Shown piece after piece: positions 32,674-48,565 of a stretch of DNA of 58,094 bases. The DNA comes from a virus (lineage: Duplodnaviria; Caudoviricetes). Position 1 is the stretch's first letter. The number at the start of each line of letters is the position of its first letter. Under the pieces are notes generated by a model. It worked only from the letters and a program-made list of their open reading frames with translations. It was not told where the DNA came from and did no database searches. The stretch spans positions 1 to 58,094 of the IMG/VR virus record IMGVR_UViG_3300027842_000016. One strand, given 5' to 3'. The position numbers and the translations under genes are program-made.

Positions 32674-33618
32674 TTATCCGTTGCTGGTCCCGATGACTTC
32701 GACGGCCCGGTTGGAGTCTAAGATCGGATATACCGCATAGCACTTCCACCCGATTGAACCGTTCAAGTTCAGGGGGTCGGCCACACCGCTATCTCCCGGT
32801 TGGTGGACGATTTTCTGAATCCCTTGGTTGGCAACATCGACAGCACCAAAGGCTTCTTTTCCGAACACCCAGCTGTGATACGTCACGGCAGACATCGCCC
32901 CGACGCCAGTGAAGATGTTCTGCGATTCTTGGAAGCGGATGTTGGACATCTTTCCAAGCTCGCCAGCTAGAGCCATTTCATGCACCCGCTCAATGCTGAT
33001 GTACTTGTTCAGCTCGATCCAGCTGGTAGCGTTGCTATCAGACTGCAAGTCGAACGAAGTATGAGGGGACACGATCCCGTGGTAGCAACCATCCTCGAAA
33101 GGAAGGACTGCCAACGAGCGCAGGAACGCTGACGCCCGGCGGAAGTCAACCGCGAGCGCAGGGGTGTTCACAGCGCCTTCGGTCATTGCACCGCCTGTAT
33201 ACTGGATCGTCATATTGCCGGTGAGGGCGTTACGAGCGATGGTATCCAGGGACAGTCCGGCCTGATAGCCAAGCACATCGTGGATGGCTTCAGTGATGTT
33301 GTCATACGCTTCCAGCATAAGCCGGTCAGAGTAAGCAACATACGCTCCGTATTGCACGGGCGTCGCCAAGATTTTCGTGGACTGCCAGACTTGGCCGTTC
33401 GGGTTTACACCTTCGCCTAGAGGCGTGGTGACCGCTGCCTGGTTCACAGGGCGGAGGAACTGAATTTGCGTACCAGACTGCCGAGGCAGGGTCCGCTTTT
33501 CAGCGTTCTCTTGGAAGAACAAAGAGAACATGAGACGGGTCAAGAGCTTGCGATCATAGAAGATCGCGGAAGCGTCATTCAGACCCGACGTGGAAGTAAG
33601 GTTCGTGTTAAGAGCCAT
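32674..33618 (-). CDS. Major capsid protein (N4-gp56-like family)
   Basis: FYDRKLL..LPRQSGTQIQF..LGEGVNP..QYGAY..GELGK..DPLNLNGSIGWK. Confidence 0.9.
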   Translation of the reverse strand: MALNTNLTSTSGLNDASAIFYDRKLLTRLMFSLFFQENAEKRTLPRQSGTQIQFLRPVNQAAVTTPLGEGVNPNGQVWQSTKILATPVQYGAYVAYSDRLMLEAYDNITEAIHDVLGYQAGLSLDTIARNALTGNMTIQYTGGAMTEGAVNTPALAVDFRRASAFLRSLAVLPFEDGCYHGIVSPHTSFDLQSDSNATSWIELNKYISIERVHEMALAGELGKMSNIRFQESQNIFTGVGAMSAVTYHSWVFGKEAFGAVDVANQGIQKIVHQPGDSGVADPLNLNGSIGWKCYAVYPILDSNRAVEVIGTSNG

Positions 33619-33671
33619 ATCTTTCACCTTTCATTTACGAAATACGCGGGAGCGCAAAATCTCCTTATGCA

Positions 33672-33791
33672 CGTTTGTACAAGCTCCAAGGTCCTGGCCG
33701 TCCAAGCCGCCAGCGCATCAATCCTATGTGGGGCGTCCGCGAAGGACGCTTGTCCGTTAGTAATGGACACATGCCTTATCTCGTACAAACG
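33672..33791 (-). ncRNA. Multi-branch structured RNA upstream of the capsid gene
   Basis: 9-bp closing stem CGTTTGTAC/GTACAAACG enclosing TGTCC/GGACA and GCGTCC/GGACGC hairpins. Confidence 0.55.
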
Positions 33792-33852
33792 AGGGGCTTT
33801 GCTTGTTACCAATCATCTTGTCCAATTAAGGGGCCTGTTTGGTAACTTTATA

Positions 33853-33928
33853 TGGTTGCTCGCCTGGGAATCGAACCCAGCCCTCTAGCTTATGAGACTA
33901 GAATGATCATCCAGATCACTTGCGTGCG
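33853..33928 (-). tRNA. tRNA-Met(CAT), atypical, with initiator-like C1:A72
   Basis: 76-nt cloverleaf; anticodon loop CT-CAT-AA; T arm CTGGG-TTCGATT-CCCAG; encoded CCA. Confidence 0.85.
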
Positions 33929-34025
33929 AAATTGGAACCCAGGGTCTATGTAACAAAAACTTCAACTTTTTATTACAGGAAGCGTCGCCTGGGTAACTTT
34001 ATGTTATCACGATAACGCCTTTCGG

Positions 34026-34101
34026 CGTAAAGCGGATGCTCTGCCAACTGAGCTACTCCCCCGATGGAGGAGGCCGGACTCGAACCGGCGACCTATCTGC
34101 T
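34026..34101 (-). ncRNA. Circularly permuted tRNA-like element (T arm, closed acceptor stem, D arm; Val-TAC-like)
   Basis: AGCAGA-TAGGTC-GCCGG-TTCGAGT-CCGGC-CTCCTCC-ATC-GGGGGAG-TA-GCTC-AGTTGGCA-GAGC-A-TCCGC-TTTACG. Confidence 0.85.
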
Positions 34102-34169
34102 AAAATTGTGCCCAGGGGGCCTTGTGAGTATCCCGATTTTACGGGCAGCTGACCCTGGGGCTTTGGTGA

Positions 34170-35186
34170 TTATCTTTGCTGAGCGTCCGGGTGATTCTGA
34201 AGCCACTCGCGCTGTTGCGCCAGTGTCATCTTCCTGAACGCGGCCAGGCCGTCTGTCGGCATACGGCCCGCGCCTTTCCCGGCGCTTGCCACAGTTCCGC
34301 CAGCTGCTTCGGCACGAAGGGCTGCTTGCGCTTCTTTCATCGCATCTTCCCTTGCGGCTTTGGCAATGGCCTCTTTCTCCTTGGCCAGCATTTCGGCCAG
34401 GATTTCCTTCATCTCTGATTCTTTGTAGACCTTCTCTCCGCTCGGTTCGGGAGCCGGGGCCGGTGCAGCCTTGGGATTCTCTTGGAGAGCCAACTCATAA
34501 AGCTGGTCCAAGACCTCGGCAGCCGGTTTGGTGAAGTCCACGCGGGGGTCGCCGTTGCCGGTCGCGCCCGTTGCCAGCTTCACGATGGAAGGATAAAGGC
34601 GCTTCCATTCCGGGTAGTTCTCGGCGTCGTTCTCGCGCCGCGTCCTCTCGATGAAGATGTCCTTCGCCTTGTTCTCGGCGGCAAGGGCTTCCAACTGTTC
34701 CTGGTGCTCTTGGGTCATCGCTTCCCGCTCGCTCTCCACAAATTTCTGAAGGGCTTCGGGGTTCTTCGCCAACTCTTTGTAGTCGATTGGCGTCTTTGAG
34801 AGGCTTGCTAAAAGCTTGTACGTCTTTTCCTGCGCTTCTTTGATCTCGGCCATTTCCTTTCGGAGCTTGGCGTTTTCCTGAGAGGTGCGGACGTTCCACT
34901 TTCTCAGCTCTTCCGGGTCGTTGGCTTCTTTCTTGCTCTTGGGAAGGAACTTCCCAGTGGCCGGGTCTTTCTCGACCTTGCCTTTCTCTGGATCGTCAGC
35001 GGGCTTCTTGTCCGCAGCTGCCTTCTCTTCAGCCGCCTTTTTGTCGGCCTCAGCCTTGTCAGCAGCGGCCTTCGCTTCCGCTTCCTTCGGATCGGGCTGT
35101 GCAACTTCCTCTTGCTTCTTCTCAAGGGCCTCAGCTCGTTGAGCGATTGAAGCCGGGTTTACTGTTGATTCGCTTGCGTGTCCCAT
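34170..35186 (-). CDS. Capsid scaffolding protein
   Basis: Acidic Ala/Lys-rich coiled coil, DPATGKF motif; lies between portal and MCP. Confidence 0.8.
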   Translation of the reverse strand: MGHASESTVNPASIAQRAEALEKKQEEVAQPDPKEAEAKAAADKAEADKKAAEEKAAADKKPADDPEKGKVEKDPATGKFLPKSKKEANDPEELRKWNVRTSQENAKLRKEMAEIKEAQEKTYKLLASLSKTPIDYKELAKNPEALQKFVESEREAMTQEHQEQLEALAAENKAKDIFIERTRRENDAENYPEWKRLYPSIVKLATGATGNGDPRVDFTKPAAEVLDQLYELALQENPKAAPAPAPEPSGEKVYKESEMKEILAEMLAKEKEAIAKAAREDAMKEAQAALRAEAAGGTVASAGKGAGRMPTDGLAAFRKMTLAQQREWLQNHPDAQQR

Positions 35187-35936: not shown

Positions 35937-38033
35937 TTATTTTAACCCCACTGGTTGACTCGCCGCACCGGGAAGATTCACAGGTGGTACAGCTGTCGTT
36001 AGCTGTGGAAGTACCGATGCCGCCGTTCTTGTAGCCAGTGGTACGGTCGGTGATCCGCCGTTGCCGCCAGCTTGATGTGCCGCTAAAATTGCTTTGCCCG
36101 CCACAGCCGTGTCACTGGCCGGAGGTGGGACTGGTCCTGGGCCGCCGGGAAGGTTCGTGGGGCCGGGGCCACCTGCGCCCCCTGCACCTGCCGCTGGCTG
36201 AGGATTCAAACCAGCTGCACGAATATTCTTGGAGTCGAAGCCCATCAGCTCCCAGATTTGCTTCAGGATGGTGTCGATGGAGTTCGGGTCCAACTGGTTC
36301 TGCGCCAGCGTGAAGAACGTAGACATCTGGTTGACCTTCTGGTCCTTGTTGACCATTTCGGACAACACCGTCAATTTGAAGTTGACGCCCGCCGCCGTCC
36401 TGATCATGGCCGGGGTCACCACTGCCGGGTCCGCGAAGATGTGGCCGTAGAAAGCGCGGATGACCTGGGAGTTGGTCAGATACTGCAAATCGAGCATGTA
36501 GAAAAGCTGAAGGACCTTCTTGATCCCCTTGATCTCGATGGCCTTGGCCGCCGTGGCAAACTTCTCCATCGCCTGTGAAACGGCCACCTTCGCAACACCG
36601 ACACCAATAGCGCCCTTGTTGCCCTGCATGTCATCAATGTTCCCGGTCAGCGAGGCTGGCACAGTAGCATTGAACATGTCCTGCTGAATCATCTGCGCGT
36701 CCGTGTAGGCGGACTGTGTAACGTCCTTGCGCTCGATGGGCTGTAAGTTCTCCATCGCGTCCACGAGGACGACTCCGCTGGGCGAGGCCGTGAGCTTGTC
36801 AACGTCGATGCTCGTGTCCGTAGACAGCGCCTTGTACATCTGGTTGATGAGGAGGTTCACGTTATCGAGCCGCTGGCGGCGCACGAGGTTGGTTTCGTTC
36901 TGCAAGCTGAGCACTGGCTCAACCAGACCGATACCGTACCATTCCAACGGCACTTTGCAGAAGCAGACTTTCACCAGCGGAACTTCTTGGTGATCAAATG
37001 GGTTCGGAACTGCGCGGACCACTACTTGCCGGTTAGCGATGACGATCTGGCAAGGCTCTTCCTTCCCGTCGCCATCGAGGTCCCAATAGCCCCAGACCTC
37101 AACCAGCTCGATGTCCTTAGACACGACCGTAGAGATTTCACCACGCGCCGTCTTTCTCCACTGCCGGGTTTCCTGGTACTTGTAGGTCGTCCCAGTGGCC
37201 AGCGCCATCTCTTTGTTTCCAAAATAGGGTTGGGGACTGTCGCAGATTCGTGCGAACTCGTCCCGGTTCATAAATTTGCGGATCATCACGGAGGACTGGT
37301 TCTCCACATCGGCGTGGTCCTGTTCCGGGTACACGTCCAAAATGTCGAGCACAGTGAGCTTCGGTCGGCGTCCTACGATCTCGTAGCGCTTCTTCTCTTC
37401 GTAGGTGACCTTCTCCTGGTTGACGCCGTTGTCGTCCACGTAGGTGAATTTCTTCGGCTGGCGATTGACGCGCCATTTCCATTCCACTTCCCAGTCCACC
37501 CAGAAGTAGGACGTTCCGTAGAGTAGGAGCTGCTTCAAAAAGGTTTCGTACTTGTCGTTGAACTCGTTCTTGTCGAGCTGGTCGGCCAGGAGGCGGTTGA
37601 TGTTCTTTGCGATCTCGTCCTCGTTGATGTCGTTCGGCACAACGTCAAAGAGATTCTCGTTGCCGCTCGTGAAGCTGATGAGCTTCGGCGTGGCAATCTC
37701 GATGATCTGGAAAATGAGAGGGACGAAAATCTTGGACCGCGTGGGCGTCCGGCTGGTGACGTTGCCGTTCATGTAGGCAACGTAAATCTGCCACCACAGA
37801 ATCTCGTAGGCCTTGCGCCAGTTCTCGCGGAGCGTCAGCTCGCCCATGAACTGAGACACCATCGTCTTTTGAACGGCCAGGCTGTAGGCGTCCTCAGTCT
37901 CGTTCTTGGCATTGTCGTACCCTTCCGGCATTGCGATCTGAATCGGCCTGTCGCCTTGCAGTTGATCGAGTTCGTCAGACCCTTCCTGGTCCTCCATCTT
38001 CTGCAATTCGTCCGCGTTCTCAGTTAAATCCAT
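35937..38033 (-). CDS. Portal protein
   Basis: 698 aa after TerL; RSKIFVP, LLYGT, NPFDH, WYGIGLVE motifs. Confidence 0.88.
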   Translation of the reverse strand: MDLTENADELQKMEDQEGSDELDQLQGDRPIQIAMPEGYDNAKNETEDAYSLAVQKTMVSQFMGELTLRENWRKAYEILWWQIYVAYMNGNVTSRTPTRSKIFVPLIFQIIEIATPKLISFTSGNENLFDVVPNDINEDEIAKNINRLLADQLDKNEFNDKYETFLKQLLLYGTSYFWVDWEVEWKWRVNRQPKKFTYVDDNGVNQEKVTYEEKKRYEIVGRRPKLTVLDILDVYPEQDHADVENQSSVMIRKFMNRDEFARICDSPQPYFGNKEMALATGTTYKYQETRQWRKTARGEISTVVSKDIELVEVWGYWDLDGDGKEEPCQIVIANRQVVVRAVPNPFDHQEVPLVKVCFCKVPLEWYGIGLVEPVLSLQNETNLVRRQRLDNVNLLINQMYKALSTDTSIDVDKLTASPSGVVLVDAMENLQPIERKDVTQSAYTDAQMIQQDMFNATVPASLTGNIDDMQGNKGAIGVGVAKVAVSQAMEKFATAAKAIEIKGIKKVLQLFYMLDLQYLTNSQVIRAFYGHIFADPAVVTPAMIRTAAGVNFKLTVLSEMVNKDQKVNQMSTFFTLAQNQLDPNSIDTILKQIWELMGFDSKNIRAAGLNPQPAAGAGGAGGPGPTNLPGGPGPVPPPASDTAVAGKAILAAHQAGGNGGSPTVPLATRTAASVLPQLTTAVPPVNLPGAASQPVGLK

Positions 38034-39391
38034 TATTCGTCCTCTGATACGTTAGTGAATGCCGTGTACGGCAAAAGCTCGTTGGTGTCGCGCTCGACCT
38101 TGCGCCTTTCTGGTTTTTTGTTCAAATCAAGTGGGTCAAATGTCTTAGCCGCCTTTTTTCTTGCAAGGCCACCCAGCCTAACCAGGTCGTATACTCCGGC
38201 CAGGTTCTTAGAGAAACCGTACCGTAGAGCGTCAGGGCTGTGAGAACACTCATGAGCAGGTTTAGGAGCCTTTCCACTCGCGGGAGCCTTCTCATAGCAG
38301 TATCCCTCCATCTCCCGGATCAGGTCCTCGCACGTGTCGAAGAACACGAGCCGGTTCTCTTTCAAGAGCTTCGTGATGCGCTGGATGCCAACGTCGATGT
38401 CGTTGTCGGCCTGTTCAAATCGCAATTTGCATACCGTGCGCGTCTCGTTCATGACGGCCACAGCCGCCGGGTCCCAGATGGTGAAGGTGAACTTGTTGAA
38501 GTCGATGAACTTCCCAAGGACCTGCGCCAGGGTGTGATTCTTGTAGAACTGGGTGTAGACGTAGAACTTCTTCGACTCCGAGTCGTAGGTGATGCCCAGG
38601 ATGGACGTTGGGTCCGTCCACCCGTAGTCGAGCCCCGACCACTTCGGCCAATGGCTTGGAATGTCGAACGGCTCGCACACATGGTCGTGCCGGTTGAACT
38701 CCGGGTACACCAGGCCCTCGATCTGGACGAACCGCCCCTCGAAGTCCCGCTGGAAGATGGACACGTTCATCGTGGCCTTCGCCCGGTCGTAGACCGCCCG
38801 GTCGATGTAGGGGTTGTCGGCCATTGAGAAATTGATATAGAAGAGCCACGGCAGGAACTTCCGCTGCTCGATCAGCCTGACGTTCATCCACGAGGACGGG
38901 CTGCCATACGGCGTGGTCGTCATCAGGAGCCGTCCCTTGGGGTCCCCGGCCTTCTGGACCAAGCGCTGACAGAGCTTGTCGTAGGTCGTCTCGACGCAGA
39001 GCGCCGCCTCGTCCATCCACGCCCGGCGGGCCCACAGCCCTTCCACGGCGTCCGGCTTGTCTGCTGACCTGATCCACACGACTCCCCCGTTGGAGAGCTG
39101 GATCAGGGACTCCTGCTTCTTGTACTCACCCAGACCCTTTGGCCAGTAGGTGAACAGGGTGCGAAGCGTGGACTGATTCAAAATTCGGTACGTCGGCCCA
39201 AGGATTAGGTAGTCGGCCTTGATGCCCGCCTTCATGTCCGCCGCGATCTCGCGGATGAGCCAGATGGCCCCCACGGAGGTCTTACCGGAGCGGTGTCCCG
39301 CGACGGCCAGAATCTGCTCTGCCTCCGAGTCCAGGATTCTCTGCTGGGCCTCGTGCGGGGTGAATACCAGTTCCCTGGATTCCCCGGACAT
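38033..39391 (-). CDS. terL: Terminase large subunit
   Basis: PHEAQ, AGHRSGKT, WMDEAA, TTTP, GLDYGWTDP, HSPDALRY. Confidence 0.95.
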   Translation of the reverse strand: MSGESRELVFTPHEAQQRILDSEAEQILAVAGHRSGKTSVGAIWLIREIAADMKAGIKADYLILGPTYRILNQSTLRTLFTYWPKGLGEYKKQESLIQLSNGGVVWIRSADKPDAVEGLWARRAWMDEAALCVETTYDKLCQRLVQKAGDPKGRLLMTTTPYGSPSSWMNVRLIEQRKFLPWLFYINFSMADNPYIDRAVYDRAKATMNVSIFQRDFEGRFVQIEGLVYPEFNRHDHVCEPFDIPSHWPKWSGLDYGWTDPTSILGITYDSESKKFYVYTQFYKNHTLAQVLGKFIDFNKFTFTIWDPAAVAVMNETRTVCKLRFEQADNDIDVGIQRITKLLKENRLVFFDTCEDLIREMEGYCYEKAPASGKAPKPAHECSHSPDALRYGFSKNLAGVYDLVRLGGLARKKAAKTFDPLDLNKKPERRKVERDTNELLPYTAFTNVSEDE

Positions 39392-39831: not shown

Positions 39832-39905
39832 TGGGGTGACGTAAGGGAGTCGAACCCTTCCACAGTGGGTCACAGCCACCGGCCCTACCGATAGGCGAAT
39901 GTCAC
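39832..39905 (-). tRNA. tRNA-His(GTG)
   Basis: 74-nt cloverleaf, loop CT-GTG-AC, C73, encoded CCA. Confidence 0.88.
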
Positions 39906-47380: not shown

Positions 47381-48565
47381 ATGCCCATTTCGACAATCAT
47401 CGAAACGAGCGGCGTGCCGGTCAAGGTCTGGTCGAAACAGATCGAGGTCGAGGCCCAGCAGCAGCTTGAAAACGTAGCGAGATTACCGTTTGTTTTTAAG
47501 CATGTGGCTGTCATGCCTGACGTGCACGCCGGGCGCGGCGCGACCATCGGCTCGGTCGTGGCGACCAAGGGCGCTATTTGTCCGGCGTCAGTCGGCGTTG
47601 ACATCGGGTGCGGGATGATGGCCGTCAAGCTCAGTCTCAGTGCGGAGAATAAAGCCCTATTGCACGCAAAACTTGCGGAGATTAGGCACAGCATCGAGCG
47701 ATCAATCCCTGTGGGATTCGAGAGCAACCGCAACCTCACCACACAAGTTGAGGCTTGGGCGGGATGGACGGCGATAGGAAAGCCAGAGATCGGAAGCAAT
47801 GACACGAAGCGAGCGATGTCACAGATGGGCTCGCTCGGCGGTGGCAACCATTTTATTGAGGTCTGTCTGGACACGGAAGGCGAAGTGTGGGTGATGCTTC
47901 ACTCCGGCTCACGGAACATCGGAAAGGTCCTGGCCGAGAAGCACATCGACAAGGCCAAGGGCCTGATGAAACAGATGTTCATCAATCTACCAGACCCGGA
48001 CCTTGCATACTTTGCTCAAGGAACTCCTGAGTTCAGCGCATACGTGAATGATGTGCGCTGGGCCCAGGATTATGCCATGAGCAACCGCCATGAGATGATG
48101 CGTCGTATCCTCAAGGACCTCGGCTACTTCTTCAATGGCGGCGAACCTCTTGTGCCGGTCGTGTCAGTCAACTGTCACCACAATTACTTGGAGTGGGAGC
48201 ATCACTATGGCGAAAACGTTATCGTCACTCGTAAGGGCGCTGTCCGAGCCAGAGAAGGGGATATGGGAATTATCCCCGGCTCGATGGGAACACGAAGTTT
48301 CATTGTTCGGGGTAAGGGTAACCCCGAATCGTTCAATTCCTGCTCACATGGCGCTGGTAGAAGGATGTCGCGGACAAAAGCACGTCATCAATTTACAGTC
48401 GATGACTTGCGGCAGCAAACTGATGGGGTTGAATGTCGAAAGGATGCAGCTATCATCGACGAGATTCCAGCAGCTTATAAGGACATTGGCGAGGTTATGG
48501 AAAATCAAAGTGACCTCGTTGAAGTAGTGGCTGAGCTGAAACAAATCTTGTGCGTGAAAGGATAA
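47381..48565 (+). CDS. rtcB: RtcB RNA ligase
   Basis: MPDVHAG, VGVDIGCGM, GSLGGGNHFIE, HSGSR, CHHNY, PGSMG, SHGAGR, DEIPAAYK. Confidence 0.97.
   Translation: MPISTIIETSGVPVKVWSKQIEVEAQQQLENVARLPFVFKHVAVMPDVHAGRGATIGSVVATKGAICPASVGVDIGCGMMAVKLSLSAENKALLHAKLAEIRHSIERSIPVGFESNRNLTTQVEAWAGWTAIGKPEIGSNDTKRAMSQMGSLGGGNHFIEVCLDTEGEVWVMLHSGSRNIGKVLAEKHIDKAKGLMKQMFINLPDPDLAYFAQGTPEFSAYVNDVRWAQDYAMSNRHEMMRRILKDLGYFFNGGEPLVPVVSVNCHHNYLEWEHHYGENVIVTRKGAVRAREGDMGIIPGSMGTRSFIVRGKGNPESFNSCSHGAGRRMSRTKARHQFTVDDLRQQTDGVECRKDAAIIDEIPAAYKDIGEVMENQSDLVEVVAELKQILCVKG

Follow-up and report, generated by a model that had tools for sequence, protein, structure and literature searches.

The virus genome (Duplodnaviria; Caudoviricetes) of IMG/VR record IMGVR_UViG_3300027842_000016, which is 58,094 bp long and rated 100% complete, was analysed in its entirety and is called the window below. 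At 34029-34101 on its minus strand it carries an element in which the two halves of one tRNA stand in reversed order, the 3′ half ahead of the 5′ half, and a short loop closes the acceptor stem. This permuted closed-acceptor element was confirmed to be real, with a match beyond chance, by an E-value of 1.1e-6 against the Rfam model of YrlA Y RNAs and by covariation in seven other contigs. Its structure is under selection. On sequence comparison, the element is best read as having the topology of the YrlA effector domain minus the Ro60 module, and it would then be a minimal Ro60-independent variant of that domain. We consider it probable, though far from assured, that the element is a non-decoding look-alike derived from tRNA-Ala, which acts in trans by engaging a factor that reads the tRNA body.

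Reading the minus strand from 5′ to 3′, the element starts from a leader, CACAATTTTA (34101-34110), which is invariant in the eight aligned contigs (the window and seven related loci, L006-L012) and whose last A (34101) is the equivalent of A38. The leader is followed by GCAGA (34096-34100), the 3′ strand (positions 39-43) of a closing, anticodon-like helix that pairs with 34032-34036, and by the variable region TAGGTC (34090-34095), which is invariant in all eight contigs and whose T can pair with A26. The T arm GCCGG-TTCGAGT-CCGGC (34073-34089) leads into the closed acceptor hairpin CTCCTCC-ATC-GGGGGAG (34056-34072; strands at 34072-34066 and 34062-34056, loop at 34065-34063), which has seven base pairs including G3:U70, a 3-nt loop and no CCA. 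Next come TA (34054-34055), the invariant equivalents of U8 and A9, and the D arm GCTC-AGTTGGCA-GAGC (34038-34053), which has an invariant stem and the equivalents of G18 and G19. The module is completed by A26 (34037) with TCCGC, the 5′ strand (27-31) of the closing helix (together 34032-34037; assigned in the pairing test), and by a TTT (34029-34031) that is invariant in the eight contigs and forms its conserved 3′ end. An earlier note, made from the letters alone, had laid out both halves base by base, with the ATC triloop, the missing CCA and G3:U70, and all of these are present in the minus-strand sequence. Three details were absent from it, namely a C·A mismatch at 29:41 in the anticodon-like stem, one extra base before AGGTC and the lengthened closing helix described below. 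Directly after the TTT lies ACG (34028-34026), which belongs to a hairpin, ACGCC-GAAA-GGCGT (34015-34028), that contains GCCGAAAG. This hairpin was also described in the earlier note, and among the relatives it is confined to the window. In minimum free energy (MFE) folds without guidance, five of the six distinct cores adopted the permuted cloverleaf. A38 can pair with U32, the first T of the terminal TTT, and in the MFE fold the closing helix is lengthened by A38:U32 and U44:A26, so that just two U residues stay unpaired at the 3′ end.

ARAGORN called neither a tRNA nor a tmRNA at the element in its native order, and at gathering thresholds no Rfam model had a match anywhere in the window. 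The earlier note had proposed the YrlA and tRNA models as a check; the Rfam tRNA model gave no match at the site, whereas the YrlA model (RF02553), in a search of 601 nt in E-value mode, matched 34038-34093 with 37.7 bits, which is below its gathering score of 69. The match spans model positions 27-81 of 114, i.e. the tRNA-like core alone with its T and D arms, and model positions ~1-24 and 84-114 were unmatched. The same model scored two of the relatives at 37.7 bits (L009) and 41.2 bits (L012), again over the core only, whereas the junctions of tandem tRNAs in L001 and L002 gave no match at E ≤ 1. YrlA and the element share the order of variable region, T arm, closed acceptor stem-loop and D arm, with a helix in place of the anticodon stem. 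Both keep the positions of the tRNA tertiary contacts, both lack CCA and an anticodon loop, and both have an irregular anticodon-like helix, which is kinked in YrlA and carries a conserved mismatch in the element. Genomes with YrlA often encode RtcB as well. Binding by Rsr and modification by TruB and DusA are further traits of YrlA. The element differs from YrlA in matching the core only and below gathering, in lacking a basal stem, a conserved Ro60-binding motif and a TROVE/Ro60 gene in the genome, in its acceptor stem of 7 bp instead of the 6 bp of Salmonella YrlA, and in being fused to a tRNA-Met inside a capsid operon. The length of the Salmonella stem and the kink in the YrlA structure are given in 10.1101/312249, according to which it is unknown what the tRNA-like domain of YrlA binds and what it does.

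According to PMC4201824, the 5′ and 3′ ends of YrlA form a basal helix carrying the Ro60 (Rsr) site, GNCGAAN0-1G on the 5′ strand, and YrlA is encoded within ~4 kb of the Ro60/TROVE gene and on the same strand. None of the three near-complete genomes that bear the element (the window, G001 and G002) has a TROVE/Ro60 gene, while the control genomes were positive. There is no basal stem either: on the 5′ side the flank folds locally into a hairpin, and on the 3′ side lies tRNA-Met. These results agree, for the window and its relatives, with the earlier note, which had seen neither a Ro60/TROVE gene nor a long Y-RNA stem. GCCGAAAG fits the Ro-site motif but lies on the wrong (3′) side and occurs in the window only; it was judged a chance resemblance, the relatives being without that hairpin. 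Closed-acceptor modules in unrelated viral contigs served as comparators. They sit on long basal stems built from their flanks, and five of the eight records searched encode TROVE, so that the long-stem modules are likely to be ordinary phage Y RNAs. On four modules linked to Ro60 (L046 3457-3567, L062 4149-4257, L049 4535-4600 and L048 504-570, all with long basal stems and TROVE in the record), the YrlA model gave 34.5-45.5 bits, in two cases over the full model. None of the four reached 69 bits, and the gathering score therefore discriminates poorly where phage members are concerned. In both L041 and L049, a second and weaker closed module lies nearby. Outside the family of the element, a closed-acceptor module with a GTAA loop was also seen at L099 10480-10565, in a record of jumbo-phage size (G009; 178,732 bp, 95% complete) with several tRNAs and no TROVE match, providing a second example of a module without Ro60. 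L038 and L094 had no TROVE match either, but these records are only 22% and 35% complete. In the literature searched, which did not extend to Tables S1/S2 of Chen et al. 2014 or the tables of the IMG/VR catalogue of structured RNAs (PMC10690425), no phage was found to be described in which a closed-acceptor tRNA mimic without Ro60 is fused to a tRNA.

A search with the major capsid protein (MCP) gave 29 related viral loci (26-92% identity). Seven of these, L006-L012, have the module upstream of the MCP gene, as detected by a pattern scanner and by a covariance model of the element family (R1). We tested the permuted cloverleaf over 21 pairs in an alignment of the window and these loci (A2; eight rows, seven distinct). 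In the seven distinct rows, 95.2% of the pair cells were paired, compared with 34-66% when partners were slid, and none of 500 shuffles reached any of five pairing measures. Eight of the 21 pairs change on both sides, so that the covariation among homologues upstream of related MCP genes, for which the earlier note had suggested looking, was indeed found. Changes on both sides affect three of the seven acceptor pairs, three of the five T-stem pairs and two pairs of the closing helix, in which the central mismatch is conserved in all seven rows. All T-stem cells are paired, and the T-stem pair 28:40 appears as G:C, U:A, A:U and C:G. L012 has a wholly different and perfectly paired acceptor, CTGACTC-CTT-GAGTCAG. 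The D stem is invariant across the rows, as are the bases of the variable region, the D loop and the T loop. The linker measures 3-4 nt in all eight contigs, which is in keeping with the non-chargeable mimic that the earlier note had favoured on account of the short linker, as is the match of the core to YrlA. Its sequence varies (ATC, TTC(G), CTT), it has no CCA-like bases, and the base at the discriminator place may be A, T or C. The flanks of the element-bearing contigs are only 77-90% identical, yet the stems are compensated, which indicates that the pairing is being maintained.

R1 scored the window and L006-L012 at 104-116 bits. In the other 22 MCP loci it had no match at E ≤ 1, except for 15.6-bit matches at tandem tRNAs (L014 and L016). 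In scans of whole records, G001 and G002 had a single copy apiece, and eight other related records had none. A family pattern independent of the flanks recovered the same seven viral contigs, gave nothing in 185,579 prokaryote genomes and matched two metagenome contigs, of which one is the same phage as L009 and the other is unrelated. The latter, an AT-rich contig of 1,136 bp (L157), has a closed-acceptor module CTCATCT-GTAT-AGGTGAG at 529-588, which scored 51.8 bits on R1. Further stretches flagged by the scanner (L021, L023, extra matches in L006 and an A/T run in the window) were discarded; they have long loops or ACCA linkers (tRNA 3′ ends) and received no score from R1. The only cellular match to the MCP is 35% identical and lies in a metagenome-assembled genome, and no cultured phage exceeded 35%.

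The element is accessory and patchy among the MCP-related loci. The closest relative, L004 (92% MCP identity), has a hairpin, CAAAATTT and tRNA-Met without the element, and in L013, L015, L017 and others a hairpin-leader unit stands directly before tRNA-Met, the ..AATTT leader being kept. The element thus sits exactly between a conserved tRNA leader and tRNA-Met. In five of the eight contigs (L007-L010 and L012) tRNA-Met starts at the base after the TTT of the element. In L006, a 5′ remnant of tRNA-Met and then an inserted ORF lie downstream of it, and in the window and L011 a spacer with a hairpin and a U run separates the element from tRNA-Met. Several side features mark this intergenic region. 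The truncated tRNA-Met piece of L006 is followed by a run of G, and probable HNH-type homing endonuclease ORFs, recognized by eye from Cys pairs and His, occur in L004/L005 (~2420-2800), L006 (~2290-2560), L016 and L026, either upstream of the MCP gene or within it. In L026 and L027 an inserted ORF precedes the MCP match, which begins only at residue 122 or 96, suggesting an interrupted capsid gene. A further tRNA with a GCA anticodon region (Cys-like) follows tRNA-Met in L012 (2691-2764), L006 (2681-2753), L014 and L016; in the last three its T arm looks degenerate and ARAGORN did not call it.

An element of this shape could have no function at all: it might be a tRNA fragment of attP type, a decaying junction of tandem tRNAs or an artefact of assembly. 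The only DNA matches among 50,697 phage records were stretches of 67 nt with 80% identity in Synechococcus phages, which are ordinary tRNA-Thr|tRNA-Ala junctions with spacers of 2-3 nt, and no other cultured phage matched. In addition, recombination is frequent at this hot spot, where HNH genes and remnants of tRNAs are found, and the closest relative lacks the element. However, in the cyanophage junctions no pairing forms between the 3′ acceptor strand of one tRNA and the 5′ strand of the following one, and the YrlA model misses real junctions. At least 119 viral stretches matched the general pattern of T arm, short spacer and D arm. In the 80 that were scored, all seven acceptor positions were paired in seven junctions, six in six, five in 15, four in 12, three in 15, two in 21 and one in four. 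Most junctions are therefore not closed, with at most four of the seven positions paired in 52 of the 80. The arrangement of the element, by contrast, recurs in eight viral contigs (window included) from seven metagenome datasets and in one further metagenome contig, with compensatory changes across contigs whose flanks have diverged. This pairing and recurrence exclude a decayed junction or an assembly artefact, and the earlier note's own alternative of a decayed or misassembled tandem-tRNA remnant did not hold, since the same module is present in seven of 29 related loci. An attP or integration remnant was likewise rejected on the basis of the mid-operon position, the compensatory evolution and the lack of an integrase (no tyrosine integrase was found in the window record, while control genomes were positive). 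Lack of function is accordingly the explanation to which we give the least credence. The cyanophage matches remain informative about descent: the 5′ half of the element aligns with cyanophage tRNA-Ala(UGC) through GGGGGA... and CTTT, which supports an origin from tRNA-Ala.

Circularly permuted tRNA genes occur in Cyanidioschyzon merolae, other algae and Thermofilum. They mature through a circle made by splicing endonuclease and ligase at a bulge-helix-bulge, their linker is processed and a functional anticodon is kept. The element resembles them in that its 3′ half precedes its 5′ half and rejoining the halves gives a cloverleaf, and differs in its linker of 3-4 nt, its unconserved anticodon, its bacterial host and its flanks, which allow no bulge-helix-bulge (a leader and hairpin on one side and tRNA-Met on the other do not pair with each other). 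That no such motif is present had already been stated in the earlier note. With the halves rejoined in silico, ARAGORN called a tRNA in 30 of 30 variants (six distinct members with five junctions each), in contrast to none of the same six members in native order, and for the window the swap of halves proposed earlier yielded a tRNA-Val(tac) at the 37/38 junction. A true permuted tRNA gene, or a circle, whose outer ends are joined by RtcB or an Rnl2-like ligase and which decodes or persists as a circle, would account for these calls and for the invariant U runs at both open ends. The genome encodes both enzymes, as the earlier note had noticed and Pfam confirmed: an RtcB RNA ligase at 47381-48565 on the plus strand (430.7 bits; 13 kb from the element) and a Rnl2-like ATP-dependent RNA ligase of family PF09414 at 1896-2918, also on the plus strand (62.8 bits). 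Among the three near-complete element-bearing genomes, PF09414 occurs in all three and RtcB in two, the window and G001; RtcB is absent from G002, which is 100% complete. Records without the element had RtcB in none of eight, PF09414 in one of eight and TROVE in none of the three searched; these eight records are 38-100% complete and mostly from more distant relatives, and the co-occurrence of ligases and element is only a hint.

The anticodon itself speaks against a decoding product. At the 37/38 junction it reads TAC in the window, TCG in L006, L007, L009 and L012, and TGA in L011, and in five of the eight contigs the presumed anticodon bases are the first residues of the adjoining tRNA-Met. 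The sole reading conserved after rejoining is UUU with U37, and each of the two U runs can be explained otherwise, one as the tRNA leader and the other as the loop of an ancestral tRNA-Ala. Moreover, the A38:U32 pair of the MFE fold leaves no 7-nt loop, and a linker of 3-4 nt is too short for normal maturation of 5′ and 3′ ends. The unconserved anticodon, together with the absence of RtcB from one complete genome, argues against a ligase-matured decoding tRNA. The proposal of a ligase-matured permuted tRNA or circle with a Val anticodon, as in the earlier note, thus did not survive the comparison, and we regard a true permuted tRNA or ligated circle as highly improbable. The companion suggestion of a decoy fared differently in its parts: a tRNA mimic fits the data, whereas a decoy for anticodon nucleases is weakened by the lack of any conserved anticodon loop.

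If the loop were opened, the element could also become a two-piece chargeable RNA. RNase P would cut before G1 (34062), the 3′ end would be trimmed and CCA added, and G3:U70 with A73 would allow alanylation in the window, as in the tRNA domain of two-piece tmRNA. A precedent exists in M. smegmatis YrlA with its acceptor stem of 7 bp: according to PMC4201824, RNase P cleaves this RNA both in vitro and in vivo, and CCA is added to it. The closed permuted module of that RNA shares the 7-bp acceptor with the element and differs in being bound by Rsr and encoded beside Rsr, while the phage loop has no conserved discriminator or C residues. G3:U70 together with A at the discriminator place is found in the window, L006, L009/L010 and L011. 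In two-piece tmRNA, as in the element, the 5′ acceptor strand comes only after the T arm and the 3′ strand, and G3:U70 is shared with the window. The Rfam models tmRNA_permuted (22.2 bits, gathering 47) and beta_tmRNA (19.2 bits, gathering 84) gave weak partial matches to T arm and acceptor only. In two-piece tmRNA, however, an intervening segment is cut out and CCA is encoded, and there are a tag frame and pseudoknots but no canonical D arm. At the element there is no tag reading frame, and tmRNA was ruled out by these scores far below gathering and by the lack of an ARAGORN call. The alanine marks are lost in L012 (G3:C70, loop CTT) and L007/L008 (C:G with a bulged A or an A·C mismatch, loop TTC(G)), and the loops are held at 3-4 nt without CCA-like bases. 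Consequently, the G3:U70 determinant for alanyl-tRNA synthetase pointed out in the earlier note is present in the window but kept in only four of the seven distinct rows, and alanylation cannot be the conserved function, given that both the alanine marks and the discriminator base vary. We judge the two-piece explanation unlikely; an RNase P-opened, CCA-tailed form is possible in some members.

The genomic setting bears on a further explanation. On the minus strand the order is large terminase (TerL, 38033-39391), portal (35937-38033), a 119-aa ORF, a 338-aa ORF (34170-35186), hairpin, leader, element, spacer, tRNA-Met, a second leader and MCP (32674-33627). Neither the 338-aa protein encoded upstream nor the neighbouring products of 119 and 189 aa belong to a Pfam or PHROG family, and "scaffold" as a label is a guess from position. 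The hairpin that follows the stop codon of this 338-aa gene (34110-34161, minus strand; CCCAGGG/CCCTGGG with a small inner hairpin, identified by reading the sequence) varies in sequence, yet some hairpin is present here in every relative. It was not called as a terminator. A second hairpin, ACCCAGG...CCTGGGT, with an TCCAATTT leader (33929-33994, minus strand) directly precedes tRNA-Met within the ~100-nt spacer of the window and is comparable to the hairpin-leader unit before tRNA-Met in L004. The window therefore has two hairpin-plus-..AATTT-leader units, one before the element (34101-34161) and one before tRNA-Met (33929-33994), and this duplication suggests that the element may have arrived as a cassette with its own leader. 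tRNA-Met (CAT; 33853-33928, minus strand) was called by ARAGORN and scored 26 bits on the Rfam tRNA model (gathering 29). It has a C1·A72 mismatch, a trait of bacterial initiator tRNAs, as well as an A4·A69 mismatch, and stands just ahead of the capsid leader in nearly all relatives. The only other tRNA that ARAGORN called in the window is a tRNA-His (39832-39905, minus strand). Between tRNA-Met and the capsid start codon lies a conserved, apparently structured leader of ~220 nt (33628-33852, minus strand), with invariant blocks and 38 pairs predicted over 10 sequences, 12 of them with changes on both sides. It had no Rfam match at E ≤ 1, and altered forms reach relatives down to ~66% MCP identity. 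An overlapping 62-aa ORF (33624-33812) is probably spurious.

Given this setting, the element might act in cis, as a processing or stability element that punctuates the late polycistronic RNA together with tRNA-Met. An RNase P cut would leave the upstream mRNA (TerL, portal and 338-aa gene) capped at its 3′ end by an exonuclease-blocking body and would free the capsid mRNA with its leader. The element is indeed part of the structural operon and on its coding strand, and neither a sigma-70 promoter nor a minus-strand rho-independent terminator was called around it. It is always found between hairpin-leader and tRNA-Met, abutting the tRNA in the five contigs named above, and the site is a hot spot of RNA elements (tRNAs, hairpin-leader units and the ~220-nt capsid leader). 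However, L004, L013, L015 and L017 manage with a hairpin-leader and tRNA-Met alone, and a simple hairpin already lies upstream. A 3′ blocker, moreover, needs none of the invariant D-loop, T-loop and variable-region bases that serve tRNA tertiary contacts. A role in cis is thus possible but, in our view, rather unlikely.

We therefore return to the trans-acting look-alike. As neither a promoter nor a terminator was called nearby, the element is most simply taken to be co-transcribed with the late genes, and it would be made as part of the late structural operon, between the hairpin-leader of the 338-aa gene and tRNA-Met. Judging from the established action of RNase P, a cut at the 5′ end of tRNA-Met would leave, where the two abut, a module ending in ...UUU-3′OH. 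The folded RNA would keep the elbow and body of a tRNA without a free CCA end or an anticodon loop, and therefore could not be charged or decode as it stands. Most likely, this stable look-alike would act in trans by occupying or recruiting a factor that reads the tRNA body. The leading candidates for a partner are the RNA-repair ligases of the phage, by analogy with a proposal for YrlA and RtcB; a helping role in RNA ligation has been proposed for tRNA-like RNAs. Host enzymes that process or modify tRNAs, or a tRNA-directed defence, may serve as partners instead. A related case is the b7a-tRNA of Burroughs and Aravind 2016, which, as cited in 10.1101/312249, strongly resembles an authentic tRNA and lies beside RtcB and a Band-7 protein. 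It too is a tRNA-shaped non-coding RNA of genomes with RNA-repair ligases that does not need Ro60, whereas the element, which is permuted and closed, is found at a distance of 13 kb from RtcB.

Several observations weigh against the trans-acting look-alike. The co-occurrence with ligases is confounded by phylogeny and incomplete records, G002 carries the element without RtcB, and the ligase genes are 13-32 kb away from the element, not adjacent to it. The 7-bp acceptor is the feature that makes M. smegmatis YrlA an RNase P substrate (PMC4201824), so that the loop may not stay closed in vivo. The core match below gathering may reflect homology with YrlA or independent descent from a tRNA. Finally, the covariation case comes from only 6-7 distinct sequences of one phage clade, and the thermodynamic z-scores are weak (-0.9 to -1.95), thermodynamics alone being insufficient for the claim.

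A more elaborate product would be a pre-nicked tRNA that an Rnl2-type ligase seals into an endless, circular, tRNA-shaped RNA with a loop of U only. In that case RNase P at tRNA-Met would generate the ...UUU-3′OH, a cut in the invariant AAUUUUA leader would supply a 5′ phosphate, and the Rnl2-type enzyme would join the two. We consider this very unlikely. If true, a bacterial virus would make an exonuclease-proof tRNA body without a splicing endonuclease.

The element also exposes gaps in annotation, as tRNA finders miss such modules and the Rfam YrlA threshold misses phage Y RNAs even in records that encode Ro60. At ~75 nt, it is a minimal natural RNA that could be used in pull-downs and in ligase assays. 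It represents a tRNA mimic embedded in a phage capsid operon, where, as we infer, it would be processed alongside a tRNA. The maintenance by selection of a YrlA-like module without the Ro60-binding stem or the Ro60 gene suggests that the tRNA-shaped body has a function of its own.

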